A DNA stretch of 59,408 nt from Nitrosopumilaceae archaeon (GCA_965200155.1 CBDATR010000022.1:1-59408); one strand, 5' to 3'. Numbered from the stretch's first letter, positions 9,758 through 55,388 are shown. Notes: generated by a model not told the origin, from the letters alone. Numbers and translations: made by a program.

Positions 9758-9788
9758 GCTTCAATGAGGCCCGCTAGGCTGCAGAAAT
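9758..9788 (-). repeat. Solitary CRISPR-repeat-like unit (type I-G-like), copy a
   Basis: ATTTCTGCAGCCTAGCGGGCCTCATTGAAGC on minus strand. Confidence 0.6.
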
Positions 9789-9973
9789 CGAGCAGGTTAA
9801 CAACATATATGTTTTGTTCAGCTTGCGCCATACGTATTTAGCGATTATCATGGCCTCTCGCTATGATTGCCGATTCATGACTGTAGCGGTTCGCCCATGG
9901 TCTGTATACCCTGTCTTCATTCAAATTCAGCAATTCTGTCAAATCTCGCTTCATGTACGCCATTTCGGTGTCG

Positions 9974-10110
9974 CTTAAAAGGCAGGTCATGGGCTGGAGT
10001 GATTTCCAGTGAAATTAACTTGTTCTGATTGGCCTATTTACTTGAAGGACCCGTGAGTCCCATGCCTGTATATTACCACTCCTGGAATGGTGCCAGTGAA
10101 ATTTTCGTGG
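9974..10110 (+). other. Conserved non-coding leader of TGATCA array A
   Basis: Homologous to 21040-21158(-) and 27040-27184(-); first 16 nt recur at 46720-46735. Confidence 0.8.
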
Positions 10111-11100
10111 GATGGTTACAATGGGACTTGATCAGCAGCCGGGGTTCGTCCTAGTGGTCGTGCCGGGGGTTCTTGGTATGGTCACTGGATCAGCAGCCGG
10201 GGTTCTTGGTATGGTTACCATGGGGCTTGATCAACAACCGAGGATTCTTGATCATGTGATACAGTTACCGGGCTGGACTGATCAACCATATGCCGGGTGT
10301 TCTTGATCATGTGATTACAATGGGACTTGATCAACAGCCGGGGTTCGTCCTAGTGGTCGTGCCGGGTGTTCTTGGTATGGCCACTGGACTTGATCAACAG
10401 CCGTGTGTTCTTGATGTGGTACTGCCACCATGGGACTTGATCAGCAACCAGTGGTTCTTGATCATGTGGTATGACCACTGGACTGATCAAGGATATGACA
10501 GTGTTGAGCGTGTAGGGTGTTCATGTGATATGGTCACTGGATCAGTGGTTCTTGATCATCTGGTATGGCTACTGGATCAACAACCGGGTGTTCATATGAT
10601 ATGATCACCGTGACTGATCAGCCATATGCCGGTGGTTCGTCCTAGTGGTCGTGCCGGGGGTTCTTGGTATGGCCACTGGACTTGATCAACAGCCGTGTGT
10701 TCTTGATGTGGTACTGCCACCATGGGACTTGATCAGCAACCAGTGGTTCTTGATCATGTGGTATGACCACTGGACTGATCAAGGATATGACAGTGTCGAG
10801 CGTGCCGGGTGTTCATGTGATACGGTCACTGGATCAGTGGTTCTTGATCATCTGGTATGGCTACTGGATCAACAGCCGGGTGTTCATATGATATGATCAC
10901 CGTGACTGATCAGCCGTGTGCCGGTGGTTCGTCCTAGTGGTCGTGCCGGGGGTTCTTGGTATGGCCACTGGACTTGATCAACAGCCGTGTGTTCTTCATA
11001 TGATTACCATGGACTTGATCAACAGCCGGGGATTCTTGATCATATGATGCGGCAACTGGACTTGATGATCAACAGCCAGGTGTTCTTGGCACGGTCACCA
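10110..11100 (+). repeat. TGATCA-rich modular satellite array A, includes a 292-bp higher-order repeat
   Basis: Degenerate ~45-50 bp units; GGTTCGTCCTAGTGG at 10342, 10634 and 10926 (period 292). Confidence 0.9.
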
Positions 11101-11530
11101 TCCCATGACCGCCCATTTAAGGGAGCAATAATCGTGCCAGGGGTTCTTATGATATGGCCATCATTCCATCATAAGGGTTACCATTCCATATCTGGGATGG
11201 CCCGGATCCATATCATAATGACAGAGAATTATTCTCGCATGACTGGGAATAGAATCTATCCGGTATCAAAGTTGCGCCCAAATCATTCATCCGATGAAAC
11301 CAACACTGAGCTGGGGCTATTCAGATGACGAGTATGGAGACCGTAAAAAGAACCGCTGGCTACCTTTCACTGGACCTTATTGCGGGATTGCCCTTCTTGC
11401 AGTTGCAATATTCACAAGGCTTGCCTTGGTCTTATCGGTCCCTATAGGGAAGCATTCACATGGTTCCCGCTCATTGAGGCGTGGATTAATCACATTCAAG
11501 CTTTATGTTTCACAATTTTCCCAATATGTT

Positions 11531-11542
11531 AACCCATTAACC
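11531..11542 (+). promoter_or_regulatory. AACCCATTAACC promoter-like motif
   Basis: 23 nt before ATG 11566; the same motif precedes other genes at similar spacing. Confidence 0.65.
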
Positions 11543-11565
11543 TTTCATTGAATCATTACTATAAC

Positions 11566-11931
11566 ATGATACCATTAATCCCTGTAATAGCACTCGCGGC
11601 GGCCATATCTGTTGGCATGATTCTATACGTGACTGGTGCCGCCTTGGAATTACAGGAGTTGAGAAGTGATGCATCTCAAAATACCCAGGAGCGATTACAA
11701 GAACGACTGACCGGTGAGTACGAGGGCAGTCCTACCAACATTAATGATGCTACCATCATATCTGAGTGGACAGAGGATTCTGTAATTACTGGAATCATTA
11801 TAAGGTGTCCGGACGGCTCGTCTGAGACCATACAGATTAATGATGAAAGAGTACCAGGCGGGGGCGCCTGGCAGATAGACCAGACAATACAGGATGATAT
11901 GCAGGATGCCGCGGGAAGGTGCCCGCCATGA
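11566..11931 (+). CDS. Membrane-anchored pilin-like/hypothetical protein
   Basis: Hydrophobic N-terminal helix; first gene of a four-gene overlapping operon; ATG 11566 preferred over TTG 11548. Confidence 0.6.
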   Translation: MIPLIPVIALAAAISVGMILYVTGAALELQELRSDASQNTQERLQERLTGEYEGSPTNINDATIISEWTEDSVITGIIIRCPDGSSETIQINDERVPGGGAWQIDQTIQDDMQDAAGRCPP

Positions 11932-19087: not shown

Positions 19088-19097
19088 AGAACTATTT

Positions 19098-19189
19098 GTA
19101 TGAGTTCACCTGTGTCTAAATTTACGCATAACTGATCGCGACAGTTAATGTGATTTGTGCATAAGATTCCGGAAGACGTGAACTCATAC
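19098..19189 (-). mobile_element. MITE copy 8
   Basis: Perfect TSD AACTATTT. Confidence 0.93.
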
Positions 19190-19217
19190 AACTATTTTTT
19201 TTAAATGAGTTCTCTGG

Positions 19218-19249
19218 ATTTCCGCAGCCTAGCGGGGCCCCATTGAAGC
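19218..19249 (+). repeat. Solitary CRISPR-repeat-like unit, copy b
   Basis: ATTTCCGCAGCCTAGCGGGGCCCCATTGAAGC. Confidence 0.6.
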
Positions 19250-19404
19250 GCTGGAATGGCTTGCCACCATTAGACCATATGCGCAGAATCACTGTGTGTG
19301 AGAGCGGCTAAAGAACACACACGCCAAACGTGAACAGATATGATAGAATGTATGGATTCATCACATGTTGTTCTAATACAAAGTAATACTACTATTATAA
19401 TAGT

Positions 19405-19919
19405 ATGAAAAGAACAGAAGTTGCACTCATGGTGGGGAACAAGACCATTACGAAGAAGCAAGCAGAGAGTCATGTTTGCGAGGACATTGATGGATAAGAG
19501 CGGCAAGTTTGTCGTGAGAGCGTTTCCCGGTATCCCAACGGATGATATTTGTGATCAAGAACGCTCAGTGGATTGCAGGCACTATGCGGCCAAAAGAGGC
19601 AGTTTCCAATCTCAAACCCTAGTCAGTTCAATGGGTTATTGAACGGACTCATGAATTGGCTAGATAGGTGCAAAACCGTTACAGGTGTCCGTGAAAAGAT
19701 TCAGTGGAGGGCGCTGGGGAGACTGTAACTGGGCGAATGAAATACGCTATGATGATTGTTAAGGGCTCCCAAGGAGGTTATAGAATCCACCATCATTCAT
19801 GAATTATGTCATATCGTATATCAGAACAATTCTGGGCACTAGTTCACAAGCATTACCCGAACTATGACGAGAGCGAGAAGTGGCTGAGGGCAAATGCCCA
19901 AGGAATACTCCAATACTAG
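19405..19919 (+). pseudogene. YgjP/DUF45-like zinc metallohydrolase, frameshifted
   Basis: RWGDCN and IIHELCHI motifs across frames; inverted paralog at 54667-55178. Confidence 0.7.
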
Positions 19920-19934
19920 AATTATTTGTTAATG

Positions 19935-21040
19935 GTGAACAAGAACCCCCGGTTGCTGATCAGTGACTGTCATATCCTTGATCAGTCCAGTGACCATAAC
20001 AAGAACCCCCGGTTGATCAGTCCGGTGACCGCATCACATGATCAAGAACCCATGGCACGGCCGCTATGACGAACCCCCGATTGATCAGTCCAGTGGCAAC
20101 CATGTGAAGAACCCCAGTGTTGATCCAGTCCGGTGACCGCATCACATGATCAAGAACCCATGGCACGGCCGCTATGACGAACTCCCGGTTGCTGATCAGT
20201 CCAGTGGCAACCATGTGAAGAACCCCAGTGCTGATCCAGCCCAGTGACCGCATCATATGATCAAGAACCCCCGGCTGCTGATCAAGCCCCATGGTGACCA
20301 TGCCACATGATCAAGAACGCCGGCACGCTCAACAGTGACTGTCATATCCTTGATCAGTCCAGCCCAGTGGTCATACCAAGAACACCCGGCTGTTGATCAG
20401 CCTCATAAATGGTGACCGCATCATATGATCAAGAACCCCGGCATATGGCTGATCAGCTCAGTTGTCACACCACATGATCAAGAACACATCCGGCATATGG
20501 CTGATCAAGTCCCATGGTAATCATACCAAGAACACCCGGCACGCATGAATGATTCACATGCATCAGCGGCCCTAGCTTGGTGGCCGTACCAAGACCCGCG
20601 GCTGTTGATCAGTCCGGTGAACCCCCCGGCTGCTGATCAAGCCCCATGGTGACCATGCCACATGATCAAGAACCCACGATAGCTGATCAGCCCAGTTGCC
20701 GCATCATATGATCAAGAACCCCCGGCACGATCACTAGGACGAACCCCCCGGCTGCTGATCAGCCCCTTGATAACCGCATCATATGATCAAGAATCCCCGA
20801 CACATGGCTGATCAGTCCGGTGACCATACCACATGATCAAGAACTCTCAGCACGCATGAATGATTCACATGCATCAGCGACTCTGGCTTGGTAACCATAC
20901 CAAGAACCGCTGGCACATGGCTGATCAGCCCCATGGTGGCCATACCAAGAACCCCCGGCTGCTGATCAAGTCCAGCCCGGTGACCATACCACATGAACCC
21001 CCAACCGCTGATCAAGCACCCATGGCGGTCATGAGCAAGC
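19935..21040 (-). repeat. TGATCA-rich modular satellite array B
   Basis: Unit GAACCCCCGGCTGCTGATCAAGCCCCATGGTGACCATGCCACATGATCAA near 20265 and 20620, with many variants. Confidence 0.9.
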
Positions 21041-21345: not shown

Positions 21346-21840
21346 TTGGTTGTAACCTTTGATCAGGCACTAGATACCGATGAAACGGACAAGGGCAGTT
21401 CTGTACACAAGACACAGCGGGGTGATAAATTTGAGGAACTAATGTCACATTATTTCAGGAATAATAGTATCTACAAGGACGTAAAATTATGGTATGACTG
21501 GTTCCATGAACAAGGTGCCGTAATCTATCTGGTTGAAGACAAGGACTGTAAGTGCTGGAATGATGATTCTAGTATAGACTTGGAAAATATCACACCTCTT
21601 CGTAAGATGGACAGGCTCATTATTGTATTCACGGGTGCAAATGTAAGCAAGCATACTGAACGACGTTGTTATATTACAACTCGACAAATCGCTTTAGGCG
21701 TTGACCACAGCAATAATGTAGAGTGGACATATCATGGACCACGTACATACAAAGCGAGTGATATGGGGAATACACGGATCTGGTGCGCTAGGAACAAGCC
21801 CACCAAAGTAGGGACTGTACATCACAGGGGGACTCGCTGA
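21346..21840 (+). pseudogene. Decayed Mrr-like nuclease N-terminus of a Type ISP-like gene
   Basis: GDKFEELMSHYF..IYKDVKLWYDW resembles KGKLFERLVKSF..FKEVWLWNDY of the next gene. Confidence 0.5.
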
Positions 21841-24800
21841 TGGATGGATTCAGTAAAGCATTAGAGCATCTCCGCGTCATATCTGACGGGAATGGTCACA
21901 CCAAGGGTAAGCTGTTTGAGAGATTAGTAAAGTCATTCTTGGAGACTGACAATTTATACCGGGAACGATTCAAGGAAGTATGGCTATGGAATGACTATCC
22001 TGATCGAGATGGCCGAGCTGATTTCGGTGTTGACCTAGTAGGGGAACAGAAGGATGGTTCGCGGTGTGCCATTCAGTGCAAGTTCTTTGATCGAAAACCG
22101 TTAACGAAGCGAGACATAGATAGTTTCCTAGAAGCCGGTTCCAGATCGGAATTTTGTAGTATGATTCTGTTCTATACTGGTACTGGTTATGGTAAGAAGG
22201 CAGAGGATGCCATGATTGGTCACAAATGCAAGGTGGTGAACCTTGAGTCCTTGGCTGGTAGTAACGTGGAGTGGCCGGATCTAGCCGCAGGTATCACTGA
22301 GGTAAAGCGAGTAGAACCATATTCTTTGCGGAAGCATCAAGGAAAGGCAATAGAGTCTGTCATGTCAGGATTGGAGAAGAATGATCGTGGTCAGCTGTTG
22401 ATGGCTTGTGGAACAGGCAAGACACTCACATCGTTACGGTTGGCGGAACAAATGGTTGGAGTAGGCGGGCTAGTACTATATGCCGTTCCCTCGATTTCTC
22501 TAATGCATCAGGCCATCCGGTATTATTCCGAGAATAGAACGATACCTCATTCTTATATCGGCGTCTGCTCAGATGTCAAAGTCAGTCACGGTGAGAGAAC
22601 GGACATACCAATAATAGAGATGGAGATAGGTGTCACAACTGATCATACCAGAATAGCAGAGGCTATAAAGAGTCATGATAGTCATTCCATGACTATTCTA
22701 TTCGTTACATATCATTCCATGAAGGCGGTGGTGGAGGCGCAGAAAATCTGCGGTAAATCATTTGATATTATACTTAGTGATGAGGCGCATCGCACTACTG
22801 GAGTCGAAGATAAGTCATCATTTACCATGATACATAATGATGTAATGGCCAAGAAGCGACTATACATGACCGCCACTCCGAGAATATACAAGGCGGCATC
22901 TAAGAGCCGGGCCAAAAAAGAGGATAAAATACTACATTCCATGGATGATGAAAAGATATTTGGGCCCGTTCTACATGAGTTATCATTCAGTGATGCAATA
23001 GATCAGCACTTACTATCAGACTATCAGGTTATCATTCTAGGTGTAGATGAACGGTATGGCCTGAACCACTCCATCATAGACACAACCACAGATGAGGGGG
23101 ATCTTAAACTGACGGACGCCGCTCGTATGCTGGGGCTGTATCGTGTACTAGAGCACCCGAATGACTCGATGTCACCACTACAGACTGCTATCGTTTACAC
23201 GAATCGTGTCCGTGACTCCAAGCGGTTTGAAAAGTCGTTCTCTAACCTGAGTGTAAGTAGTGGTTTCAGCTGTGATGCTAGACATGTGGACGGTACTCAG
23301 AACGCGTCCGTGCGAGCAGAGGCCATACAATGGCTGAGAAATAGTACTACTAACCCAAAGCAATGTCTTATACTCAGTAATGCAAAGTGTCTGTCAGAAG
23401 GTGTGGATGTCCCTGCCCTTGATGCAATATGTTTCATGGATCCTAAACGTTCCCAAGTGGAGATAGTACAAGCTGTTGGTAGAGTCATGAGGACGGCCCC
23501 TGGCAAAAAGTTTGGTTATGTAATAATACCCATAGGTGTACCGCCTGATGAAAAGTCTGTAAACATCTTGAATAATAACACAGTATTCAAGCAGGTCTGG
23601 GATGTCTTGCGCGCCATGCGCTCCCATGATCAAACAATGGGGATAGAGGCGGACATGGCCAGCATGAGGAAACGACCCCCTGGCAAGGTCCGGTTTATTG
23701 GTGTTGATCGTAACGGGAATGCCAGCGAACAGGACGGGAATGATGTCATAAAATTGGGTGAGCTAGATGTCCCCGCGGATATGCTATACTCAAAAATCGT
23801 CGAGGAGGTCGGTGATCGCCGTTACCTGGAACACTGGGCTAGTGACGTCGCGGATGTAGTACAAAGAATACAAAGCCGTATAGAGAGGGTTATCAAGCAA
23901 CCTGGTGTTGCCAGAAATAACTTTAATCATTTCATGAAAGGACTCCGGGAGATAATACACGACAGTCTTAAAGAGTCAGAGGGAATAGAGATGCTATCCC
24001 AGCATATGGTGACTAGAAGGATATTCAACACTCTATTCCAGAATGATGACTTTAACAGGAATAATCCCGTATCGGCCGCGCTGGACAAAGTCGTGGAAGA
24101 ATTACATGATCACGGTTTAGATACGGAGTTAAGAGATATAGAACAATTTTATCGTTCCATCGAGAACCGCGTCAGTGGTATAGACAATGATGCCCGTCAA
24201 CAAGTCATTAGTGAGTTGTATGGCTCCTTCTTTGAGAGGGCGTTCCCCAAGATGGCTGATAGATTGGGAATCGTGTACACGCCGGTTGAGATAGTTGACT
24301 TTATACTGAAATCAGTTGATCATGTCTCCAAGGAGAACTTTGGCCGGGGACTGACCGATGCCGGTGTCAATGTCATTGATCCATTCACCGGGACTGGAAC
24401 ATTCCTTACAAGACTGATGTCGCCGGATCTTGGAATAATACATGACGACGACATGGAAAGGAAATATCGCCATGAGCTATTCGCGTCTGAAATTGTATTA
24501 TTGGCATATTATATCGCAGCGGTGAATTGTGAATCCGTATATGGTTCCAGGACTGGTTCATTCAAGCAGTTTGAGGGATTGTCATTATGTGATACATTCA
24601 ATCCTGGACGTTTGGCTGAACACACTGGTGACGTCATGGCTGAGCCAAAGAAGCGTATTAGAAAACAACGAGAATCTGAGATTAATGTGGTTATATGTAA
24701 TCCACCATATTCTAGTGGACAAAAGTCGGCTAGTGATGACAACAAGAATGTCTCTCACCCCATTCTAGAACGACACATAAAGAACACCTATACGAGTAAG

Positions 24801-26671
24801 GCGCGTAACGTTGGCTTCAAGGGAGCCATACTGAACCCAAATAACTCATACATCAAGGCCATTCGTTGGACATCTGATAGAATAGGGGAATCAGGAGTAA
24901 TCGGTTTCATAACACCGTCTGGTTTCATTACCGGGAATAGTGAGGCGGGAATACGCGCCTGTCTTGAAATGGAGTTCACCGACATATACTGCTTTGACTT
25001 GAGGGGTGATGTAAAAGGTAAGCAGGATTGGAGACGAGAGGGTGGTAAGATATTTGGGAGTGGCTCAACTGTGGGCACCGCTATAACCATCCTGGTGAAG
25101 AACCCCGCCAAACATCATTCTACGATTCACTATCATGACATCGGCGACTACCTGAGTAGAGAGGAAAAGTTGGAAATCATAAAAGAACATGGTTCCATTG
25201 CAGGAATGGAATGGGAGATTATAACACCGGATAGATTCTATGACTGGCTGAATCAGCGTGAATCCAGTGATGAGTGGGATTCCATCACTCCAATGGGAAG
25301 TAAGGAGGGAAAACGTGGGAAGACCAATGATGTAATGTTTGGAATGTATTCCAGTGGGTTGAAAACCCATCGAGATGATTGGGTATACAACGCATCGCCC
25401 CAAGACCTGGAAGAGAATATGAGAAGAACCATAGAACATTGTGCTGTGCAGGATCTGGATGATTTTGACAAAGATGTAAAATATGTTGCATGGTCCAAAG
25501 AGATGACGCGAGATCTAAAAAAGATGGCGCCAAGCAAACCCAGGTTCAATAAAACAAAGATCAGGACAGCACTGTATAGACCATTCCTGAAACAGTATCT
25601 ATATGCAGACTATGAAGTAATGGTATCCACACCCTCTAATATCCCCTCATTCTACCCACACCCCGACTCCAAGAATCATTCTATTATGGTGCCGGATAAA
25701 ATAAAGGGTGAGTTCTCTACGTTTGTCACTGATATCACGCCCGATCTTCACATCCACGAGGCATCCCAGTGCTTCCCCATGAGAGTCAAGAAACAAAAGG
25801 ACAAGAATAGACATGTGGTAGGTAGCCAGTCAGCCAGTCAGCCAGTCAGCCAGTCAGCCAGTCAGCCATCGAGAACCTGGCGATAATAGTCCCGGACAAG
25901 ATCAAGGGTGAATTCTCAGTATTCATAACGGGAATAGCACCGGATCTGGAAGTGGTGCATCACGGGCAGGTATTCCCCATGTTCACACAGTCACCGGAGG
26001 TGATGAAGCAAAAGGATAACATCACCGACTATTCCCTGGAACTATACCAGAAACGATATAATGATGACTCCATAACCAAGGAGGACATCTTCTACTACAC
26101 CTATGGCATCCTACATCATAATGGTTATCGTTCCAAGTATAGGGTATTCCTTGTTAGAGGATTGCCGAATATTCCCATGGCGCCTGACTTCCATGGAATC
26201 ATGAGAGCAGGCCGAGAACTAGCTGACTTACACCTGAACTATGAGACATGCCCACGTTATGACTTGGGTGAGCCGCTTCACTCCATACCTGATCACCCAA
26301 GAACGATTAGATTTGGTAAGAAACCAAATAGAACCGGTTCCCCGGGCCCCAAAGACAAACCGGATCCGTCAACCATCATAATAGACGGCCAAAAGATATA
26401 CGATAACATACCATTAATCAATTACAAAGTGAATGGCCGTACACCTGTAGGATGGTTAACCTTCATACCAAAGAAGGCAAGGAGTGGGATAGATAGGTAC
26501 CCATTCCGGGTCTTTACAGGAGAACAGATCCGAGCCATGCTGGAACGACTAGTACATGTCGGTCTAGAATCCGATAGGATCATAGCCAACCTCCCAACTG
26601 AGTTCGAGATGGATGATATCAAGACAGAACCAACCGGCCTGGACAAGTACTACAAGGCGCCTATTCCCTAG
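21840..26671 (+). CDS. Type ISP restriction-modification enzyme (LlaGI/LlaBIII-like), frameshifted at an 8-bp repeat (ORFs 21840-25886 and 25952-26671)
   Basis: Mrr-like GVDLV..AIQCK, SF2 helicase ACGTGKT/DEAH, MTase DPFTGTG/NPPY, C-terminal TRD (DIFYY.YGILH). Confidence 0.92.
25824..25868 (+). repeat. Simple sequence repeat (AGCCAGTC) x5.6
   Basis: Five perfect 8-mers plus AGCCA at the frameshift site. Confidence 0.95.
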
Positions 26672-26859: not shown

Positions 26860-27184
26860 ACCACTAGGACGGCTGATCAGTCCCATGGTGGCCATACCAC
26901 ATGATCAAGAATCCACGGCACATGGCTGATCAGTCCCATGGTGGCAGCATCACATGATCAAGAACACCCGGCACATGGCTGATCAGCCCCGTGGTAACCA
27001 TATCAAGAACCCCCCGGCTGCTGATCAAGTCCCATGGTAACCATCCTACAAAAATTTCACTGGCACCATTCCAGGAGTGGTAATAGGCAGGTATGAGACT
27101 CACGGGTCCTTCAGGTGAATGGGCCGTTATTAGAACAAGTTAATACCATTGGAAATCATTCCAGCCCATGACCCGCCTTTTAAG
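26860..27184 (-). repeat. TGATCA array C (short) with leader 27040-27184
   Basis: Same units and leader as arrays A and B. Confidence 0.85.
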
Positions 27185-27198
27185 GGAGGAATAATTCC

Positions 27199-29619
27199 AT
27201 GGCCGCGCTTGACAGAGTCGTAGAAGAATTACATGATCACGGTTTAGATACGGAGTTAAGAGATATAGAACAATTTTATCGTTCCATCGAGAACCGCGTG
27301 AATGGTCTAGACAGTAATGATGCCCGCCAAAAAGTCATTAGTGAGTTGCATGGCTCCTTTGAGAGGGCGTTCCCCAAGATGGCTGACAGATTGGGAATCG
27401 TGTACACGCCAGTTGAGATAGTGGATTTCATACTGAAATCAGTTGATCATGTCTCCAAGGAGAACTTTGGCCGGGGACTGACCGATGCCGGTGTCAATGT
27501 CATTGATCCATTCACCGGGACTGGAACATTCCTTACAAGACTGATGTCACCGGATCTTGGAATAATACTTGATGCAGACATAGAGAGGAAGTACAAGTAT
27601 GAACTCTTTGCCAGTGAGATTGTGTTATTGGCATATTATATCGCAACGATGAATTGTGAGTCCGTATATGGTTCCAGGACTGGTTCATTCAAGCAGTTTG
27701 AGGGATTGTCCTTATGTGATACATTCAATCCTGGACGTTTGGAAGAATACACTGGTGATGTCATGGCTGAGACAAAGAAGCGTATTAGAAAACAACGAGA
27801 ATCTGAGATTCATGTGGTTGTATGTAATCCACCATATTCTAGTGGACAAAAATCAGCCAGCGAGGACAACAAGAATGATTCCCACCCGGTACTTGAGGCT
27901 CGCATAAAGAACACCTATACGAGTAAGGCGCGTAACGTTGGCTTCAAGGGAGCCATACTTAACCCCAATAACTCATATGTCAAGGCCATTCGTTGGGCAT
28001 CAGACAGGATAGGGGAATCGGGAATCATTGGAGTCATAACGCCCTCTGGTTATATCACGGGGAATAGTGAGGCGGGAATACGCGCCTGTCTGGGAATGGA
28101 GTTCACCGATGTGTACTGCTTTGATCTGAGGGGTGATGTGGAAAAAAGTGACTGGCGACGTGAGGGTGGCAGGATATTTGGGAGTGGTTCAACTGTGGGC
28201 ACCGCTATAACCATCCTGGTCAAGGGGGCGGCAAAGCCGCCCAACAAGAACCCCGCCAAACACCATTCTACGATTCACTATCACGACATCGGCGACTACT
28301 TGAGTAGAGAGAAAAAGTTGGAAATCATAAAAGAGTATGGTTCCATTGCAGGAATGGAATGGGAGATTATAACACCGGATCGATTCTGTGACTGGCTGAA
28401 TCAGCGTGAATCCAGTGAACAGTGGGATTCCATGACTTCAATGGGTATACGCAGAAGGGATAGAAAAGAAAAGAACCAAAAATCAGAATCAATGTTTGGT
28501 GTATTCTCTAGAGGAGTGATAACAAGTAGAGATGATTGGGTATACAACGCATCGCCACAAGACCTGGAAGTGAATATGAGACGTACAATAGAGTATTGCT
28601 CCAAGCAGGACCTAGATCACTTTGACATAAACGAGAAGGATGTAGCATGGACCCCCATATTGGAGAAGAAGATAAGAGATAACGGAAATCCTGAGTTTAA
28701 TCGGTCCAATATTAGGATATCACTGTATCGTCCATTCATCAAACAATACCTATACTTGGATTCAACCCTCGTTGAACACGAATATCATATCCCCTCATTC
28801 TACCCACACCCAGACTCCAAGAATCATTCTATTATGGTGCCTGACAAAATAAAGGGTGAGTTCTCTGTAATGATAACGGGAATAACGCCGGATCTACAAG
28901 TGATAACCAACGGGCAGGTATTCCCCATGTTCACAGTCACTGGAGGTGATGATTCCATGAAGGACAACATCACCGACTATTCCCTGGAACGATACCAGAA
29001 ACGATATAATGATGACTCCATAACTAAAGAGGACATCTTCTACTACATCTATGGCATTCTACATCATAATGGTTATCGTTCCAAGTATCAAGCATTCCTT
29101 GTTAGAGGATTTCCGAATATTCCCATGGCGCCTGACTTTCATGGAATCATGAGAGCAGGCCGAGAACTAGCACGACTGCACCTAAATTATGAGACATGTC
29201 CCCGTTATGATCTTGGTGAGCCACTTCACACCATACCAGATCACCCAAGAACGATTAGATTTGGCAGGAAACCAAATAGAACCGGTTCCCCGGGTCCCAA
29301 AGACAAACCGGATCCGTCAACCATTATAATAGATGGCCAAAAGATATACGATAACATACCATTAATCAATTACAAGGCGAATGGTAGGACACCAGTAGGA
29401 TGGTTAACATTCATTCCAAAGAGTTCCAAGAGTGGCATAGACAGGTACCCGTTCCGGGTCTTTACAGGGGAACAAATCCGTGCCATGGTAGAACGACTAG
29501 TACATGTCGGGCTAGAATCCGATAGGATCATAAACGGTCTACCGGAGCAATTCGAGATGGGTGATATCAAGACAGAGCCTACTGGCCTGGACAAGTACTA
29601 CAAGGTGTCTATTCCCTAG
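27199..29619 (+). CDS. N-terminally truncated Type ISP copy (coupler-MTase-TRD only) with a different TRD
   Basis: Near-identical to 24074-26671 except for the TRD segments; lacks nuclease and helicase. Confidence 0.85.
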   Translation: MAALDRVVEELHDHGLDTELRDIEQFYRSIENRVNGLDSNDARQKVISELHGSFERAFPKMADRLGIVYTPVEIVDFILKSVDHVSKENFGRGLTDAGVNVIDPFTGTGTFLTRLMSPDLGIILDADIERKYKYELFASEIVLLAYYIATMNCESVYGSRTGSFKQFEGLSLCDTFNPGRLEEYTGDVMAETKKRIRKQRESEIHVVVCNPPYSSGQKSASEDNKNDSHPVLEARIKNTYTSKARNVGFKGAILNPNNSYVKAIRWASDRIGESGIIGVITPSGYITGNSEAGIRACLGMEFTDVYCFDLRGDVEKSDWRREGGRIFGSGSTVGTAITILVKGAAKPPNKNPAKHHSTIHYHDIGDYLSREKKLEIIKEYGSIAGMEWEIITPDRFCDWLNQRESSEQWDSMTSMGIRRRDRKEKNQKSESMFGVFSRGVITSRDDWVYNASPQDLEVNMRRTIEYCSKQDLDHFDINEKDVAWTPILEKKIRDNGNPEFNRSNIRISLYRPFIKQYLYLDSTLVEHEYHIPSFYPHPDSKNHSIMVPDKIKGEFSVMITGITPDLQVITNGQVFPMFTVTGGDDSMKDNITDYSLERYQKRYNDDSITKEDIFYYIYGILHHNGYRSKYQAFLVRGFPNIPMAPDFHGIMRAGRELARLHLNYETCPRYDLGEPLHTIPDHPRTIRFGRKPNRTGSPGPKDKPDPSTIIIDGQKIYDNIPLINYKANGRTPVGWLTFIPKSSKSGIDRYPFRVFTGEQIRAMVERLVHVGLESDRIINGLPEQFEMGDIKTEPTGLDKYYKVSIP

Positions 29620-30090: not shown

Positions 30091-30324
30091 TTGAATGGAA
30101 ATTTCATGATTCATTTCATGGACAAGATGGAACTATTGGAAGAGTGTTATGACATATTTGAAAAGATATTAGAGAAGGCTAGTCCGGAAGCGCGGCCCAT
30201 ACTGGAAAGAATAGTCAGTGGGAGAGAGGAAGTCTGTAGGATAACACGCGAGATAGACGAGTTACAAAAGATGGAATCGGCAATCAAAGCGAGAGGCCGG
30301 GTAGTCGTCTTAATCATTAAATAA
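30091..30324 (+). CDS. Small helical hypothetical protein
   Basis: ORF with charged coiled-coil-like composition. Confidence 0.45.
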   Translation: MNGNFMIHFMDKMELLEECYDIFEKILEKASPEARPILERIVSGREEVCRITREIDELQKMESAIKARGRVVVLIIK

Positions 30325-30401
30325 TTATATATATACTATGACCGTATTGTACAATTATGAAGGAGGCTGAACAAAACATCTCTATTGTTAACCTGCGCGG
30401 T

Positions 30402-30430
30402 ATTTCCGCAGCCTAACGGCCCCATTGAAG
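30402..30430 (+). repeat. Solitary CRISPR-repeat-like unit, copy c
   Basis: ATTTCCGCAGCCTAACGGCCCCATTGAAG; ~35 nt upstream shared with copy a. Confidence 0.6.
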
Positions 30431-30436
30431 TGTGTC

Positions 30437-30448
30437 AACCCATTAACC
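30437..30448 (+). promoter_or_regulatory. AACCCATTAACC promoter-like motif
   Basis: 26 nt before the pilin ATG. Confidence 0.65.
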
Positions 30449-30474: not shown

Positions 30475-31209
30475 ATGGAAAATATACGAACTGAAACAGT
30501 TCATGCAAGACCCGCCATATCGGGATTAGTAGTCACATTAATTCTAGTTGGTGTGGGTGCAGGCATGACCTTTGCCGCGTTAGGCGGTATCCAGGACAAT
30601 CTGGGCGGCCTAGCAGGGACTAATAAGGTAGTGATAGAGTCGGTTAACGCTTATGTCGCTGGTGACAGGATGGTCATCACGGGCAACTTGAAAAATATCG
30701 GGTCCGTTCCGCTAACATCAGTTACCATTGATGAGATAACTGCCGGTGCTTTAGTTATCACACAGGATGGTACTATTGAAGATGGTGAACTAGGAACTAG
30801 TCATGGTAATATGGAGTTAACAGGGTTGGCGAATGATGGAAGTGCCAGCAAGACTGTTCTCACTTCTGGTTCATGTACTGGTGGTACCGGGTATGTTACC
30901 GGAAGTGGTGATTTTAATTTCGCCGCGACCAATGCTGGTACTGACTGCACCGCCAGTGTACATGTTACAGGACTATCCACTTCAAAGGATAACAGTGAAG
31001 CACTACAACCAGGCACATCCAAATCATTCAGGATCACAATACATGGTGATTCACAAGTTGCTAGTAGTCCTACTGGCCCCTATGAAGCCACACTAGACCC
31101 CAAAAAAACAGTCCCCGCCTCAACAAAGATAACCATCACTATAGCAGGAACGGACGGCAAGACTAGTACCATTTCGGATGCCCGTTCCACGAATGTCAAG
31201 TACCGATAG
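30475..31209 (+). CDS. Archaeal type IV pilin-like protein
   Basis: Class III-like signal RPA|ISGLVVTLILVGV; LKNIGS and LQPGTSK motifs typical of archaeal pilin globular domains. Confidence 0.8.
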   Translation: MENIRTETVHARPAISGLVVTLILVGVGAGMTFAALGGIQDNLGGLAGTNKVVIESVNAYVAGDRMVITGNLKNIGSVPLTSVTIDEITAGALVITQDGTIEDGELGTSHGNMELTGLANDGSASKTVLTSGSCTGGTGYVTGSGDFNFAATNAGTDCTASVHVTGLSTSKDNSEALQPGTSKSFRITIHGDSQVASSPTGPYEATLDPKKTVPASTKITITIAGTDGKTSTISDARSTNVKYR

Positions 31210-31673: not shown

Positions 31674-31704
31674 CTTCCCCTGCAGCCTAGCGGTCCCTTG
31701 AAGT
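31674..31704 (+). repeat. Solitary CRISPR-repeat-like unit, copy d (degenerate)
   Basis: CTTCCCCTGCAGCCTAGCGGTCCCTTGAAGT, overlapping the stop codon of 31687-33090. Confidence 0.5.
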
Positions 31705-42861: not shown

Positions 42862-44722
42862 TTAACTAGTGATGGTAAAGGTTACAGTGTTGGACATGGT
42901 AGAAGTTCCTGAGGGTCCAGGGGTTCTCACAAATGCCGTATATGTGTCAGCATCTAGGTCATTGAGTGTATATGAGTTAGTTGATACGCGTGCTGATCCG
43001 CCATTAATGACTCGGTCTCTGTCCCCATCAAATACCACCACGATATAGGTAGTATCTGCCAAGTCGTTCCAGCTTAGAGTAACATCATTGCCACTTATGG
43101 TTCTACTTAGTACTAATGTCTGACTGTTATCAGGTGATGTCTGATCTTCACTGCTACTAGATGATGCAGTGAACTGGAGTTTTCCCAGATTTCCCATGGG
43201 AATGCATTCTTTGCCCACAATTATGGTGTAATCAGTACCAGGTGAGAGGCCCGTAATTGTTAGAGGGTTTGTTCTGAAACTATGTGAAACGGCACTTGAA
43301 GGTCCGGAGGATGTTGGGTAGATATCGGCGAATGTACAGGTTGCGTCTTGTGGATTATAGTCCTCTGAGGCGACCTCTATAGTTACAGAGGTGCTAGTTT
43401 TGGCTTTGATTTGGGGTAAAGATGTGCCAGAGCCACTTACGGTAAGTACAAATTCATCACTTATGGTGTCGCTACCAGCAGTTGCTGTGACACTCAGAGT
43501 GTATTCTCCTCCTGCTGTTCTATCAGGCGCCAGCTGTAGGAGGTTATCATGGAATATTCTTACAGATCCAGGTAATGTCTTATCGTTCAGGATCTCTACA
43601 CTATATGTGATGTCCCTATTATCAGGATCTATTGCATTTAGCTGTATGGTACGTACTGTGCCCCCGGCCATGGTAATGTCATTTATGGTTTCAGTGAATC
43701 TGAAATTACCTTGAGATGATTGTCCTACACTACCTTGAGATGATTGTCCTACACTACCTTGAGATGATTTTCCTACACTACCTTGAGATGTAGTGAACTG
43801 GTGGGTTCCCAGATGTCCCATGGGAATGCATTCTTTGCCCACAATTATGGTGTATTCAGTATTAGGTGAGAGGCCCGTAATTGTTAGAGGGTTTGTTCTG
43901 AAACTATGTGAAACGGCACTTGAAGGTTCGGAGGAGGTTGGGTGGATATCGGCGAATGTACAGGTTGCGTCTTGTGGATTATAGTCCTCTGAGGCGACCT
44001 CTATAGTTACAGTGGTGCTAGTTTTGGCTTTGAATTGGGGTGGATCAATACCAGAGTCACTTACGGTAAGTGTAAAGTCATCCTGTATGGTATCGCTACC
44101 AATAGTTGCTGTGACACGCAGTGAATATTGTCCACTTTCTGTTCTGTCAGGAGCCAAAACAATGTCGTATGTACCGTCAGAAGGTACGTTAGCTATGTGT
44201 GCAAATCTGGGTGCAGCTGTGCCGTCCTGTTTGGTTATCGCATATGTGACAGAATCACTCGCAGGGGTTACACTGAGTGGTATGGTTTTCTTCTCGGCCT
44301 CATTCATGGTAATGTCTGATATAGTATTAGTGAAACTAAAGGAAGCGCCAGTTGTGCTAAAGGATTTAGAGTTGGACTGGACAAAGCCTGCTCCAGTGGT
44401 TCTGACAGATACCATATAGTCAGTGTCAGGATTCAGTCCGGTAATATCATGTGTGAGTCCGGTAACGCGTGTTACCCCATCAGGAATTCTATTTCCATCT
44501 CCATCACGTAACACCACGACATAATTGGTATGGTCTTGGTACTGTTTCCATGTAACGGTGGCACCAGTGGAGGTAGGAGTTACTGTAAGGTCAAATATTG
44601 GACTGGTTGTTTGAGCAAACGCAAGATCAGTGGCCGGTATTAATACTAGTGCAAGGAGGAGCCCCCCCCCCCCCGATTAAAGCTTTAACTGTAATATTGT
44701 TACGGTTAGTAGATTTTAACAT
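42862..44722 (-). CDS. Inverted paralog of the FN3/cadherin-like surface protein, frameshifted at a G13 tract in the signal peptide
   Basis: ATG at 44722 (MLKSTNRN...) is 1 nt out of frame with ORF 42862-44517; C13 at 44662-44674; three 24-bp linker units. Confidence 0.85.
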
Positions 44723-46719: not shown

Positions 46720-47072
46720 TAAAAGGCAGGTCATGATGATTCCATTCAGGATATGGGCAGGTGAGCCGGGCGGTTTTCGGTTATGGTCCGTGCCGGAGGT
46801 TCTTGTGGGGCTTGATCAGCAGCAGGGGGTTCGTCCTAGTGGTCGTGCCGGGTGTTCATGATCATGTGGTGCTGCCACCGGGCTGATCAAGGATATGACA
46901 GTCACTGTTGAGCGTGCCGGGTGTTCTTGATCATGTGATGCGGTCACCGGGCTGGACTGATCAGCCATATGCCGGGGAGGTTCTTGTGGTACTGATCAGC
47001 AACCGGGTGTTCTTGTGGGGCTGATCAGCCATATGCCGGATGTGTTCTTGATCATGTGGTGCGGCAACCATG
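46720..47072 (+). repeat. TGATCA array D with leader fragment
   Basis: Same modules (GGTTCGTCCTAGTGGTCGTG, GGATATGACAGTCACTGTTGAGCGTG). Confidence 0.85.
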
Positions 47073-47664
47073 CTTGTCGACAGAATGAGAAATACCCACT
47101 TGACATATGTCAGCAGGAAGTGCCTGAGAATCATTCCAGAATGCTACCAATTCTTGGGCAAGACCGGATTTGCCTGGCGTTATTTACAAATCTTACGCTC
47201 TATTTATGCCAAAGTGATGATTTTGAATCTAGTTCGAGAACCATTCAATGACTGAACTTGAACACCTGTAGTCTATCCACCACACCGTTCCCTCCTTGAT
47301 ATCATACACCGCCTGCCATCCATCACAGTGTAGCAACCCTTGAATGGTTTTAGACTCACTGGTATAGTTCAGAAAAAATACCGTTATCCACTCCGTTAGA
47401 CATGAATCGTCAGTCATGAAGCGACGGTTAATGGGTTGAGTGACTAGCCATTTATCGGACTAGCATTACCTCATCCGGATATTATTTAGCGAGTTCATCA
47501 GCTTTCTGTTTGGCCTCATCCAATCTTGGCGCCGTGAGGTACTCTTTGTTGTAATGGTACTCTCTTGAAATTCTGTCATGGTGTGATAATATGTCTCATT
47601 CTATTGATGGGTTGACGCGGAATGTGTGGATGTTCATGATTCAAAAAACTAAATCGTTGGTAAA

Positions 47665-50660: not shown

Positions 50661-50846
50661 TAATAATGAACCAAAGGGACAAAGAAATTACAGTCAAGCA
50701 AGAATCATAACATGGTTCTCTACTGATTGGTCATCAGCCACAAGTCCTACCAATGAAGCACCATAAGGATGGACCACCTTGGAAAACGAAATCATATTAG
50801 TTGACAAATGAGGGAACCGGGCCTATCACATACCAGCATGTCTTAT

Positions 50847-51020: not shown

Positions 51021-51114
51021 CACGGGAATCTGTGGTGCATTTGATGGCCAGACAATCCATACAGAACCCAAATAAACATAATTTATATACATTGATTAAT
51101 ATATAATATGCATA

Positions 51115-51279
51115 TTGGAAGCAAGATACTCCGGTGGCTGCATTATGGGGCAGTATGAATATGACATGCTGACAAAACTGGTAGAGTCAGGAAAGATACG
51201 ATCAAGAGGCAGGTTCTTCCGTGAGATGATACGCCGACACGGAAAGGCCATACTGGAAGGCAGAGAGCCGCCAATCTAG
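51115..51279 (+). CDS. Small RHH-like protein, paralog of 18917-19087
   Basis: ...LTKLVESGKIRSRGRFFREMIRRHGKAILEGREPPI. Confidence 0.55.
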   Translation: MEARYSGGCIMGQYEYDMLTKLVESGKIRSRGRFFREMIRRHGKAILEGREPPI

Positions 51280-52190: not shown

Positions 52191-52215
52191 TCTAAATCAT
52201 ACAAGTCAGGGTTTA

Positions 52216-53148: not shown

Positions 53149-53366
53149 GATTTTAATTCAGTCATGATGTAATAAAAGGACAGTTCATGTTAAACCATGA
53201 AACTGGAGAGACCTGATGGGGGAGAATTCATAGGCAACACTGAGTGATGTAGATTGTCTCAATACTATCAGGTGTGATGGTTGATGTACGCGATAACGAA
53301 ATAGTGCACCGCATTAGTGTCATTCCATGACCATGCCTTTTACCTCTGTAACAAACTAGTTCTAAC

Positions 53367-53552
53367 ATGGCATATAACATAGAGGGGAGAAGTAAGTCTG
53401 GTTACTGGTACTATTATGGATCAGAAAATGACAAAGACGATGCAATTGGTACCGCAAAGATGATTTCGGTAGAAAAACCGGGCATGCTTGTCCACGTTAC
53501 AGATACAGAGACAGGAGAAGTAGTATTTGATATCACAGTTCAAGTGTCTTGA
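53367..53552 (+). CDS. Small hypothetical protein
   Basis: Protein-like 61-aa ORF. Confidence 0.5.
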   Translation: MAYNIEGRSKSGYWYYYGSENDKDDAIGTAKMISVEKPGMLVHVTDTETGEVVFDITVQVS

Positions 53553-54544
53553 TCATTTTGTAAACCACTGGCGCATCAGCCCAAACTAACCATGTTATCA
53601 TGATCAAGAACGGCGTTGTTTATGCACAAGTCCCGTCAGGATGATACTGAAGTATACATATGAGAACAGAGGTAAAAATGGTTCAGTCCCATGAAGAGGA
53701 CCATGGGTATATTTCATTTGATTTTGATCCGTTAGATGGTGCTGATGAGAGAATCCATAAGGCGTTTGCATTATTCTCTAACTTCATATTTGGTATGTTA
53801 TTATATTGGAGCCGTGGTAAGCGGCAGCAAGCAGGCCGTTCAATGATGCAGGTCAAAGCCTAAAACAGATACCATGTCCACTATTCCTGGAATGGAATCT
53901 GGATGTTGAAGAATCATGGAATAGAATAGCCAAGGAACAATTATTGCCGGCTAAACACGCGCCATGATTGATGCCGTTTGTAACATGTTTGACATTGAGT
54001 ATGATACTGATTCCCTTACCAATATGTGGTGTGAGGAACCAAGTTGACGGTGGCTTATATGTATACTTATAATAGATTACTCTGGAGAATAGTTTATGTT
54101 TCCCACCATACACACCCACAAATTTATTGTTAAAGGTCAGCCTGTGAATCATTAATTCCATCATGGTAGACATCCGGCGCTCACCTATACCAACATGATG
54201 GAATATAGCAACATCCGCCTCTTTGTACCGCCGTCTCTGGAATGGGCTTTGCGTGTAATACCAACAACCGTGGTTTTATTTACCCTTTACACGCCTCACG
54301 TAACATGAACCACGTGGATTATAACTAGTTTCATGGAACTGCCGCCTGATCGGATTGCCCAATTCGTAATGACCTCTGAATCATTCTTAACATGTTGCAG
54401 TCATACTGGAATAGCGCGTTCACCATCTGTCCATATGATTCCCTTGAACCATTTTATCATCCGGGAATTTCTGCATGATCTCAATCGTGACTTGCCGGGA
54501 CCATTTTATCATGGAATATCTAGGGATCCTTTGGAAGTGTACTT

Positions 54545-54655
54545 TAGTTGGGCGCGGCCACCAAGCCAGGGCCGCTGATGCATGTGAATCATACGTGCCG
54601 GGTGTTCTTGGTATGGTAACTGGACTTGATCAGCCGGGGGTTCTTGGCCACCATT
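54545..54655 (+). repeat. TGATCA array E (short)
   Basis: GCTGATGCATGTGAATCAT module and CCGGGGGTTCTTG units as in array B. Confidence 0.75.
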
Positions 54656-54666
54656 AACAAATGATT

Positions 54667-55178
54667 CTAGTATTGGAGTATTCCATGGGCATTTGCCCTC
54701 AGCCACTTCTTGGTCTCCTCATAGTTCGGGCAATGCATGTGAACTAGTGTCCAAAATTGTTATGGTGTACAATATGACATAACTCATGAATGATGGTAGA
54801 TTCTATAACCTCCTTGGGGGCCCTTAACAATCCTCATAGCGTATTTCATTCTTCATGTTGCAGTCACCCCAGCGGCCTCCACCTAATCTTTTCACGGACA
54901 AATGTGAGGGTTTTACACCTATCACTCTAGCCAATTCATTAGTCCGTTCAATGACCCATTGAACTGAATGAGGTTTGAGACTGGAAACTGCCTCTTTTGG
55001 TCGTATAGTGTCTGCAATCCACTGGGCGTTCTTGATCACAAATATCATCCGGTGGGATACCGGGAAACGTTCTCACGACAAACTTGCCGCTCTTATCCAA
55101 TGTCCTCGCAAACATGACTCTCTGCTTCTTCGTAATGGTCTTGTTCCCCACCTTTAGTGCAACTTCTGTTCTTTTCAT
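54667..55178 (-). pseudogene. Second YgjP/DUF45-like metallohydrolase pseudogene
   Basis: Inverted homolog of 19405-19919; RWGDCN, HELCH. Confidence 0.7.
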
Positions 55179-55363
55179 ACTATTATGATAGTGGTATTAG
55201 TGTATATTCCTTTGTATTAACTTGTATCATAACAGCCATGAAAAAACATGTAAAGAATCCTTACGTTCAATAATATTCACTTCATGTTTGGCGTGTGTGT
55301 TCTTTAGCCGTTCTCACAAAGTGATTCTGCGCATATGGTCTAATGGTGGCAAGCCATTCCAGC

Positions 55364-55388
55364 GCTTCAATGGGGCCGCTGCGGAAAT
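55364..55388 (-). repeat. Solitary CRISPR-repeat-like unit, copy e (shortened)
   Basis: ATTTCCGCAGCGGCCCCATTGAAGC on minus strand. Confidence 0.55.

Follow-up and report, generated by a model that had tools for sequence, protein, structure and literature searches.

In the type I-G CRISPR system, Csb2 recognises the repeat through its hairpin (KD 43-55 nM), does not bind the 8-nt handle, and cleaves 4 nt 3′ of the stem (PMC9638904). The repeat studied in Thioalkalivibrio sulfidiphilus has 36 nt, with a 7-8-bp stem followed by 4 nt and the 8-nt 5′ handle (Shangguan et al., 2022, PMC9638904). Solitary repeat units carried by viruses and plasmids are reported to act as RNA anti-CRISPRs, or Racrs (Camara-Wilpert et al., 2023, PMC10651486); candidates in that study had to resemble the repeat in secondary structure and to have a promoter no more than 250 bp away, and RacrIF1 requires its stem-loop. 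The main text of that paper contains neither ‘Type I-G’ nor ‘I-U’. Finally, two integrative and conjugative elements (ICEs) of thaumarchaea, NCAV2-E1 and NitIsl-E1, bear stand-alone arrays that match those of the host (Krupovic et al., 2019, PMC6563490). These arrays are type I-B, have 69-96 spacers and look active, and the authors inferred that they derive from arrays that once had cas genes.

Here we describe solitary type I-G repeat units on a contig of 59,408 nt (the window, analysed over its whole length) from a sponge-associated, ammonia-oxidising Nitrosopumilaceae archaeon. The window is probably part of a mobile, ICE-like defence island. It carries genes for two ATPases (VirD4/TraG-like and T2SSE/FlaI-like) and a TadC/T2SSF-like protein, along with a pilin-like gene, all of them signature genes of thaumarchaeal ICEs. 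It also has restriction-modification genes and IS elements, and its IS and MITE families occur on chromosomal contigs as well. A Pfam search (E ≤ 0.1) of 14 unannotated ORFs returned nothing usable, and none of the close relatives carries the same element. Another contig of the assembly, C12, was checked as a possible variant of the window's right-hand part, but it diverges short of the last unit and is uninformative.

A reading made from the sequence alone had placed five solitary repeat units in the window, at 9758(-), 19218, 30402, 31674 and 55364(-). All five are present, far above chance: four are clear (a, b, c and e) and one, d, is degenerate (Table 1). Allowing up to three mismatches, the 18-mer ATTTCCGCAGCCTAGCGG matches the window three times, compared with no match in 100 shuffled sequences. 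The motif CCCCATTGAAG (up to one mismatch) matches five times, four of them within units a, b, c and e, against a mean of 1.37 matches in shuffles, one of 100 of which reached five. When copy b was aligned locally to the window, the scores were 64 for b, 48 each for a and c, 40 for e and 32 for d; the best match outside the units scored 23 and the maximum of 30 shuffles was 26, so that unit d, although degenerate, stands above the noise. It also has the exact 14-mer CTGCAGCCTAGCGG in common with unit a, and it lacks a leader.

Table 1. Repeat units of the window and the features that adjoin them.
Feature	Position	Strand	Description
Unit a	9758..9788	-	31-nt type I-G repeat copy; 3′ arm of hairpin short by 5 nt
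Leader remnant of unit a	9789..9860	-	Conserved core 9789-9822; aligns to leader of host array (C9)
cas2 pseudogene remnant	~9861..9984	-	First 37 codons missing; internal deletion breaks the frame
MITE-like repeat copy	19093..19210	.	~100-nt repeat directly upstream of unit b
Unit b	19218..19249	+	32-nt repeat copy; 4 nt of hairpin missing; no leader
Spacer-like stub	19250..19270	+	21 nt, common to units b and e
Non-autonomous element	19271..20080	+	Opens with IS66-type terminal repeat TAGACCATATGCGCAGAATCAC (19271-19292); inserted after the stub
Leader of unit c	30273..30401	+	TATA-like stretch 30323-30352 kept; conserved core 30366-30401
Unit c	30402..30431	+	30-nt repeat copy without TTGCGG; deletion between two CGG
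Promoter motif CAACCCATTAACC	30436-30448	+	Neighbour of relic c, not part of it
Pilin-like gene	30475-31209	+	Follows unit c; neighbour of the relic, not part of it
Unit d	31675..31703	+	Degenerate repeat relic, 1.27 kb downstream of c, same orientation
Inverted copy of 21-nt stub and IS66-type element	54627..55363	-	85% identical to the copy at b
Unit e	55364..55388	-	25-nt repeat copy without a leader; as unit b but lacking CTAGCGG

A closely matching repeat occurs in the same genome. Contig C9 carries a type I-G locus in the order cas4g/cas1g (710.7 bits, cut-off 560), cas2, leader, array, cas3g (709 bits), csb2 and csb1, and also encodes a Cas3-extension protein; cas8g was not detected in the genome with TIGR04113, a model that also misses it in three of four type I-G-bearing relatives. 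In this array, 288 spacers separate 289 repeats, of which 287 are identical; the 36-nt repeat reads ATTTCCGCAGCCTAACGGTTGCGGCCTCATTGAAGG. The sequence-only reading had derived the units by internal loss from a 36-nt type I-G repeat that it reconstructed; this derivation is borne out, as the repeat of the array beside csb2 is identical to the reconstructed 36-mer at 32 of 36 positions (four differences). The arrays of the relatives examined fit the form TTCCG-hairpin-CGGC(C/T)CCATTGAAG(C/G) in six of six cases. The 18-mer ATTTCCGCAGCCTAGCGG is absent from 40 relatives and from viral contigs, and a wider repeat search gave only single chance matches without the 3′ half (15 of 15 in genome contigs and 16 of 16 in metagenomes), which leaves no outside copy of this exact repeat for comparison.

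The host repeat is built like that of T. sulfidiphilus, and its layout of 4+8+4+8+4+8 nt matches the published cleavage geometry of Csb2 (PMC9638904). It folds at −14.3 kcal/mol (z −2.85). Units a, b, c and e retain both ends of this repeat, which read (A)TTTCCG (5′) and CGGC(C/T)CCATTGAAG(C/G) (3′), and thus keep the flanks and the handle of the T. sulfidiphilus type of repeat, but not the stem to which Csb2 binds (PMC9638904). The window units are single copies of 25-32 nt that fold no better than shuffled sequences, and the hairpin is gone from all four clear ones, with z-scores of +0.90 (a, −4.7 kcal/mol), +0.28 (b), −0.52 (c) and +1.43 (e). No second repeat follows any window unit. A functional array would be marked by spacers set between repeats and by a complete 36-nt repeat whose stem has 7-8 bp, and both are missing here. 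As the hairpin is absent, neither binding nor cleavage of these units by host Csb2 would be expected, and they would then make neither guide RNAs nor decoys that mimic the repeat.

Units a and c are, judged by their alignment to the host locus, fragments of CRISPR loci and not the ends of transposons. The stretch upstream that both had been said to share (GCTGAACAAAACAT...TTGTTAACCTGC) is real, with 30 of 34 positions in common, and from its homology it is the repeat-proximal part of a CRISPR leader. Fragment a is 95.5% identical to the C9 locus in ungapped columns, with about 140 gap columns over 361; the ~140 nt were lost through some eight distinct deletions that are scattered along the entire fragment, and the TATA-like stretch of the host leader is among the lost parts. 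Beyond this leader lies the 3′ end of a broken cas2 (tblastn E 1.5e-9; BLASTP 30/54 identities with a 12-residue gap), in which a 31-nt deletion is visible in the alignment to C9. The earlier statement that the window has no cas genes thus needs amending for this truncated, frame-broken remnant beside unit a, and otherwise holds, since six host Cas proteins used as queries found no other cas homology on the contig. The leader of unit c is 89.5% identical to the C9 leader (ungapped columns), with several deletions, and it is the only one among the window units to keep the TATA-like stretch.

Two further off-array units lie elsewhere in the genome, one on contig C43 and one at C9:270. In the C43 unit, a leader is followed by a full-length repeat (33 of 36 positions identical to the reconstructed 36-mer; −11.6 kcal/mol, z −3.80), a spacer of 38 nt and a second repeat that is degenerate. 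Against the host locus, the C43 unit is 90.7% and the C9:270 unit 84.8% identical (ungapped columns), and the gap columns number 140 for a, 105 for c, 76 for C43 and 138 for C9:270. Across these leader-bearing fragments, the deletions are spread along the whole length and are not focused on the repeat. The repeat-proximal core of the leader is kept in all four, and homology breaks exactly at the edges of the repeat.

Upstream of units b and e there is no leader, and a MITE and an ORF are found there instead. The MITE-like repeat beside b has about 600 matches genome-wide. Downstream, b and e share ~740 nt as an inverted repeat, and the b/e homology, 781 nt in all, is 85% identical; despite this divergence, the two are identical at the unit ends and over the next 43 nt, 22 of which belong to the IS terminal repeat. 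Adjacency to an IS66-type end (b and e) and to a MITE (b) could suggest that the units are simply the end of a transposon family, or a chance resemblance. However, 21 nt separate b and e from the start of the IS66-type terminal repeat, of which the genome has 64 copies (~5 for the element body), and the remaining 62 have no unit. Together with alignment scores far above those of shuffles and with the leader and cas2 homology, this rules out the motif as a transposon end, the outcome that would have undone the original interpretation, and leaves chance or transposon origin with next to no probability.

Unit c deserves separate attention because of its position. As noted from the sequence, it lies just upstream of the pilin promoter motif, the gap being 4 nt. 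Its truncated form is unchanged in DNA contigs of two studies (runs X1 and X2). In a metatranscriptome (two runs of one study, Logan contigs), the RNA contigs over the pilin-like gene start at 30485 and 30487; one of them has an adapter-like loose end at 30487. No RNA contig covers 30180-30484, which spans the leader, unit c and the promoter motif and is covered by the DNA runs; assembled contigs of ordinary RNA-seq miss small and rare RNAs, and this gap is therefore no evidence that a transcript is absent. In three congeners, neither a leader nor a repeat stands upstream of pilin homologues (0 of 4 loci).

We asked how these units compare with solitary repeats of known function. Like Racrs, they are off-array copies of the host repeat on a probable mobile element; unlike Racrs, they lack a stem-loop, and most have no promoter that can be recognised (PMC10651486). 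The reading as Racr-like RNA anti-CRISPRs, in which transcribed units would soak up Csb2 and Cas7 into dead-end complexes, draws on their mimicry of both repeat ends, on the ICE-like contig that bears five of the seven off-array units, on the TATA-like stretch in the leader of unit c, and on the occurrence of single repeats of type I-G form in viral contigs. Yet 22 of 30 single-match viral loci of this form fold the canonical stem at −8 kcal/mol or below, whereas the stem-loop is lost from all four clear units. The z-scores of the latter all lie well away from the −2.85 of the host repeat, and RacrIF1 is reported to be abolished when its stem-loop is disrupted, its 5′-handle part alone being not inhibitory (PMC10651486). 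It is likewise the hairpin, and not the handle, that Csb2 binds (PMC9638904). No promoter is recognisable at units a, b and e, and none of the 288 host spacers matches the contig (E ≤ 0.01), so that no targeting to be escaped is visible. We consider an anti-CRISPR role very unlikely. The host spacers have two matches elsewhere, on contigs C25 and C34.

CreTA is a crRNA-like regulatory mini-array system. With CreA, CreR and the crlRNAs, the latter described for phages (preprint 10.1101/2024.10.29.618823), the window units share the presence of degenerate repeats outside the main array. Those RNAs, however, match a promoter through a spacer-like part, lie in or by cas loci and in most cases include a second repeat, none of which is true of the window units. 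If the units were mini-guides of this kind, a degenerate repeat and the next 35-40 nt would direct Cascade to repress a promoter. The C43 unit speaks for the idea: 34 of the 38 positions of its spacer agree with a gene that lies on C43 too, which shows that mini-arrays with self-matching spacers exist in this genome. In the window, by contrast, no spacer-like part matching a cas or toxin promoter was found. When the 60 nt after each unit were searched against the genome, those after a and d matched only themselves, those after c matched elsewhere only through a 16-nt promoter motif, and the matches of b and e were to the inserted IS terminal repeat. The want of a second repeat and of adjoining cas genes also counts against this reading, as does the loss of the hairpin, without which Csb2 would not be expected to produce a 5′ handle. 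A guide function is highly improbable. The suggestion from the sequence that the units serve as Racr-like decoys or regulatory mini-guides is accordingly not supported: the hairpin is lost, only c has a TATA-like stretch, the 60 nt after a, c and d are unmatched elsewhere in the genome apart from the promoter motif after c, and c is not conserved upstream of pilin homologues in congeners.

A role at the level of DNA is a further alternative. The units could provide homology for recombination or integration with the host CRISPR locus, act as decoy sites for Cas4/1-Cas2 or, in the case of c, lend a promoter to the pilin-like gene. The leader core kept in all four leader-bearing units, the homology that ends exactly at the repeat edges and the 4 nt between unit c and the pilin promoter motif are consistent with such roles. 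But breaks at the repeat edges would be shown by any array-derived repeat, and the duplication of the repeat that is expected from spacer integration is seen at no unit. The promoter motif precedes six ORF starts in the genome, at five of which there is no CRISPR unit, and a similar motif occurs in congeners. We regard these roles as unlikely. A related proposal, in our view quite unlikely, is that hairpin loss was itself selected: the ICE would defuse its own stubs, so that host Csb2 could not cut its transcripts and Cas4/1-Cas2 could not load self-targeting spacers, while the repeat ends and the leader core would be retained to serve, as DNA, as decoys or as handles for recombination with respect to the host CRISPR machinery.

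We conclude that all five units are pieces of type I-G CRISPR loci (the leader, the first repeat and, in one case, the cas2 end) and that they are most likely inert relics of decay and not working RNAs. As with NCAV2-E1 and NitIsl-E1, the setting is an ICE-like element of an ammonia-oxidising archaeon with the repeat family of its host and no working cas genes alongside; unlike those elements, the window loci are type I-G and have one hairpin-less repeat each and no spacer (PMC6563490). A repeat close to that of the host, without adjacent working cas genes, is what characterises stand-alone arrays on integrated mobile elements of thaumarchaea (PMC6563490), and the window units, being collapsed and truncated, would be remnants of such arrays. 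A further example of this type of decay is found in a relative, G225, in which an orphan type I-G array (C1:325.4 kb) shows different deletions of the hairpin core between conserved ends. No cas genes lie in the ~3-kb stretches around it (cas4g/cas1g is on another contig), and, unlike the window units, this array still has about six repeats with spacers. Taken with the window, it indicates that loss of the hairpin core with the ends kept is a recurrent decay pattern of type I-G repeats.

According to this account of decay, the island would once have borne a stand-alone array, or two, made of repeats from the host's family, which would then have collapsed to single repeats through repeat-to-repeat recombination. 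Ordinary deletional decay may have removed pieces everywhere, the palindromic core included, in unit c between two CGG. A MITE and an IS66-type element would have inserted beside unit b, and a duplication with inversion would have given rise to unit e, from which seven more bases were presumably lost. Three observations count against relics without function. Five of the seven off-array units cluster on one contig that makes up 2.5% of the assembly, as might equally be expected if their role were linked to the element; the two repeat ends are better kept than the flanks; and unit c retains its TATA-like stretch, unchanged in the DNA contigs of both studies.

The result is a clean negative, in that the attractive idea of an RNA anti-CRISPR fails its defining structural test. 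The subtype was nonetheless named, and the parent repeat rebuilt to within 4 of 36 bases, from sequence alone. Screens of solitary repeats for Racrs should filter out the pattern seen here, that of repeats which retain their ends but have lost the palindromic core. If hairpin loss did prove to be selected, the units would belong to a class of CRISPR mimics that lack the hairpin and are carried by conjugative elements of archaea. For the thaumarchaea, the window documents remnants of type I-G arrays on an ICE-like island, where the ICE arrays described by Krupovic et al. (PMC6563490) are type I-B.

The five solitary repeat units of the window are real and CRISPR-derived, and the positions proposed for them in the sequence-only reading were all borne out on the sequence. 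Four copies (a, b, c and e) are clear and one (d) is degenerate. At up to three mismatches, the repeat 18-mer had three matches in the window vs. none in 100 shuffles. A local-alignment scan with copy b scored b at 64, a and c at 48 each, e at 40 and d at 32, against 23 for the next real match and a maximum of 26 in 30 shuffles. Unit c lacks TTGCGG, the gap sitting between two CGG, and unit b with CTAGCGG removed is unit e. Runs from two studies yielded DNA contigs with the identical truncated unit c, so its truncation is not an assembly error. Unit d has the orientation of c and lies 1.27 kb further downstream, with a pilin-like gene in between.

Repeat units and MITE-like repeats of the window (contig C22), and the array of contig C9 of the same genome
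Feature	Position	Strand	Sequence or content
Unit a	C22 9758-9788	-	ATTTCTGCAGCCTAGCGGGCCTCATTGAAGC
Unit b	C22 19218-19249	+	ATTTCCGCAGCCTAGCGGGGCCCCATTGAAGC
Unit c	C22 30402-30431	+	ATTTCCGCAGCCTAACGGCCCCATTGAAGT
Unit d	C22 31675-31703	+	degenerate copy, TTCCCCTGCAGCCTAGCGGTCCCTTGAAG
Unit e	C22 55364-55388	-	ATTTCCGCAGCGGCCCCATTGAAGC
MITE-like repeat sites	C22 2396-3890, 7865-7979, 19093-19210, 44768-45564, 50551-50665, 58263-58377		
C9 array	C9 71011-92087		289 repeats, 288 spacers mostly 36-38 nt

Contig C9 of the host carries a type I-G CRISPR-Cas locus (68770-98716), in the order cas4g/cas1g (710.7 bits vs. a cut-off of 560), cas2, leader and array, with a Cas3-extension gene, cas3g, csb2 and csb1 on the opposite strand. 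The array is very long (21 kb), and 287 of its repeats read ATTTCCGCAGCCTAACGGTTGCGGCCTCATTGAAGG, identical at all but 4 of 36 positions to the 36-nt parent repeat that had been inferred from the units. This repeat forms an 8-bp stem (−14.3 kcal/mol, z −2.85), after which come 4 nt and a terminal 8 nt; this matches the type I-G layout described in PMC9638904, in which Csb2 cleaves 4 nt past the stem on its 3' side to give an 8-nt 5' handle. Of 401 genomes of the class, 24 had a cas4g/cas1g score above the cut-off, and in 6/6 relatives examined the adjoining arrays follow the pattern TTCCG-hairpin-CGGC(C/T)CCATTGAAG(C/G), their stems varying by paired changes. Given the C9 locus, the repeat layout and these arrays, the subtype call and the statement that the ends are kept while the stem varies are right for this lineage. 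The reconstructed origin of the units from a type I-G repeat was likewise right. For cas8g, no TIGR04113 match was found in the genome, a model that equally misses three of four type I-G-bearing relatives; an IS5-family element lies directly upstream of csb1, where cas8g is expected.

A CRISPR leader precedes units a and c. The upstream stretch that the two had been noted to share, GCTGAACAAAACAT...TTGTTAACCTGC, is genuine and is the repeat-proximal leader core, which also occurs in the C9 leader and at two more off-array units, C9:270-301(-) and C43:~128263(-), the latter on another contig of the genome. Unit a also retains the 3' part of cas2 (tblastn, E 1.5e-9), with the first 37 codons absent and the frame broken by an internal deletion; it was the only cas homology found by tblastn outside the C9 locus. 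Aligned with the host cas2-leader-repeat stretch and compared over ungapped columns, unit a is 95.5% identical (140 gap columns), unit c 89.5% (105), the C43 unit 90.7% (76) and the C9:270 unit 84.8% (138). The blocks deleted from the unit a fragment include 31 nt of cas2, the TATA-like stretch of the leader (retained at unit c, 30323-30352) and 5 nt of the repeat, so that hairpin loss is one deletion of many. This pattern is the mark of DNA that is free of constraint and subject to a deletion bias. Dense 35-77-nt repeat families around TGATCAAGAAC and GGTTCGTCCTAGTGGTCGTGCC occupy 10000-11100 (directly upstream of the cas2 remnant), 20000-20900, 26880-27130, 46820-47100 and 54594-54632, and include a 292-nt unit in three tandem copies (10342-11220).

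No leader was found at units b and e: a MITE-like repeat stands just before b, and e lies at the end of an ORF. The MITE-like repeat (~100-115 nt) has at least 10 copies in the window and ~600 BLAST hits genome-wide. An identical 21-nt stub follows both units on the 3' side, and then TAGACCATATGCGCAGAATCAC, an IS66-type family terminal repeat with 64 occurrences in the genome, which here heads an ~800-bp element of ~5 copies. Through this common stub and element, a 740-nt inverted repeat flanks 19.2-55.4 kb, with b and e at its outer ends. An IS66-family element at 428-2200 has the terminal repeat TAGACCGTATGCGCAGAATCAC (64 sites genome-wide) and ~50 near-full-length copies across contigs at 95-98% identity.

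It had been proposed that the units act as Racr-like decoys, that is, as solitary repeats serving as RNA anti-CRISPRs, or as regulatory mini-guides. In PMC10651486, Racr candidates were selected by a repeat-like structure together with a promoter no more than 250 bp away, and disruption of the RacrIF1 stem-loop abolished all activity, the 5'-handle part alone being inactive. The clear window units, in contrast, have no such stem-loop: their folds were no better than those of shuffled sequence (z +0.90 for a, +0.28 for b, −0.52 for c and +1.43 for e), and the decoy role fails on structure. By contrast, the C43 unit keeps an intact 7-bp stem (z −3.80). According to PMC9638904, Csb2 binds the hairpin, not the handle. 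None of the 288 host spacers matched C22 at E ≤0.01. As for mini-guides, BLAST of the 60 nt after a and after d gave no other match in the genome, and the sole match after c was a 16-nt stretch containing CAACCCATTAACC, a 13-mer that precedes six ORF starts and is evidently the pilin-like gene's own promoter motif. The matches after b and e were the inserted IS end, and no second repeat was found after any window unit; the mini-guide role was not upheld. A search of 40 other genomes found homologues of the pilin-like protein in 5, and the 330 nt upstream of four such loci in three congeners held a similar promoter motif and no leader or repeat. The clustering of the units on one contig and their well-preserved repeat ends leave a small probability for a selected, hairpin-less role.

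When viral contigs (IMG/VR) were scanned for this repeat form, 71 loci yielded 96 matches; 34 of the matches were three near-identical hairpin-less 38-mers, apparently unrelated to CRISPR. Arrays or mini-arrays were present on 6 contigs and a single match in 30 loci; 22 of these 30 have a canonical stem at −8 kcal/mol or better, so solitary type I-G-form repeats in viral contigs usually keep the stem. Among loci L084-L154, ~30 viral contigs carry a single TTCCG-stem-CGGCCCCATTGAAGC repeat, mostly with a strong, canonical stem, and the repeat of L112 is close to those of the congeners G006 and G001. These repeats could be candidates for type I-G Racrs; the term 'Type I-G' is absent from the main text of the Racr paper (PMC10651486). 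C43 carries a mini-array (~128150-128300, minus strand) in which a leader is joined by a full-length 36-nt repeat whose stem is intact, a 38-nt spacer and a second repeat that is degenerate. At 34 of 38 positions this spacer agrees with a site on the same contig (38256-38293), which lies in a restriction-modification gene for a 1185-aa helicase-methylase, in the region of the NPPF methylase motif; the match is preceded by GAT.

C22 is one of 51 contigs in the 2.38-Mb assembly, and it holds five of the seven off-array units genome-wide with an alignment score of at least 32; one lies at the C9 start and one near the C43 end, and two further matches are marginal (score 27). A stricter motif rule gave six off-array units, four of them on C22. 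The contig encodes a VirD4/TraG-like ATPase, a T2SSE/FlaI-like ATPase, a T2SSF/TadC-like protein, the pilin-like protein, a PriL-like protein, ribonucleotide reductase, several restriction-modification genes, IS66 and IS1595. C22 has the gene content described for thaumarchaeal integrative-conjugative elements (ICEs), and stand-alone arrays matching the host's array are reported on two of them (PMC6563490). IS and MITE families common to C22 and chromosomal contigs (95-98% identity) place it in the host organism. At 21840-25886 lies a full-length Type ISP restriction-modification gene, and after it come two partial C-terminal copies (25952-26671 and 27199-29619), 90-94% identical over 200-300-nt stretches and with paralogues on at least six other contigs; these look like spare specificity-domain cassettes, possibly with a role in target switching. 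Inverted paralogous genes for fn3/Ig-repeat proteins (4003-5661, plus strand; 42862-44517, minus strand; arms 87-96% identical) contain internal 24-nt tandem repeats, with related segments on several other contigs.

On the best reading, the units are what is left of stand-alone type I-G arrays that have collapsed and are eroding, plus one end of cas2, all on a defence island of ICE-like character. Behind the homology, deletions and hairpin loss that we observe, we infer that the island's arrays collapsed and eroded to stubs, which later IS and MITE insertions and a duplication-inversion would have scattered. Hairpin-shortened units with intact ends were found in 3 of 231 family genomes scanned, this host and two relatives. 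One relative, G225, has an orphan type I-G array of ~6 repeats with differing internal hairpin-core deletions and conserved ends (C1:325400-325900), as well as a stub of two repeats, the first of them truncated (C1:357750-357860); the other, G307, has a two-repeat stub whose stem is genuinely shorter. Given these parallels, core deletion with the ends kept is a recurring decay route of type I-G repeats in this family.
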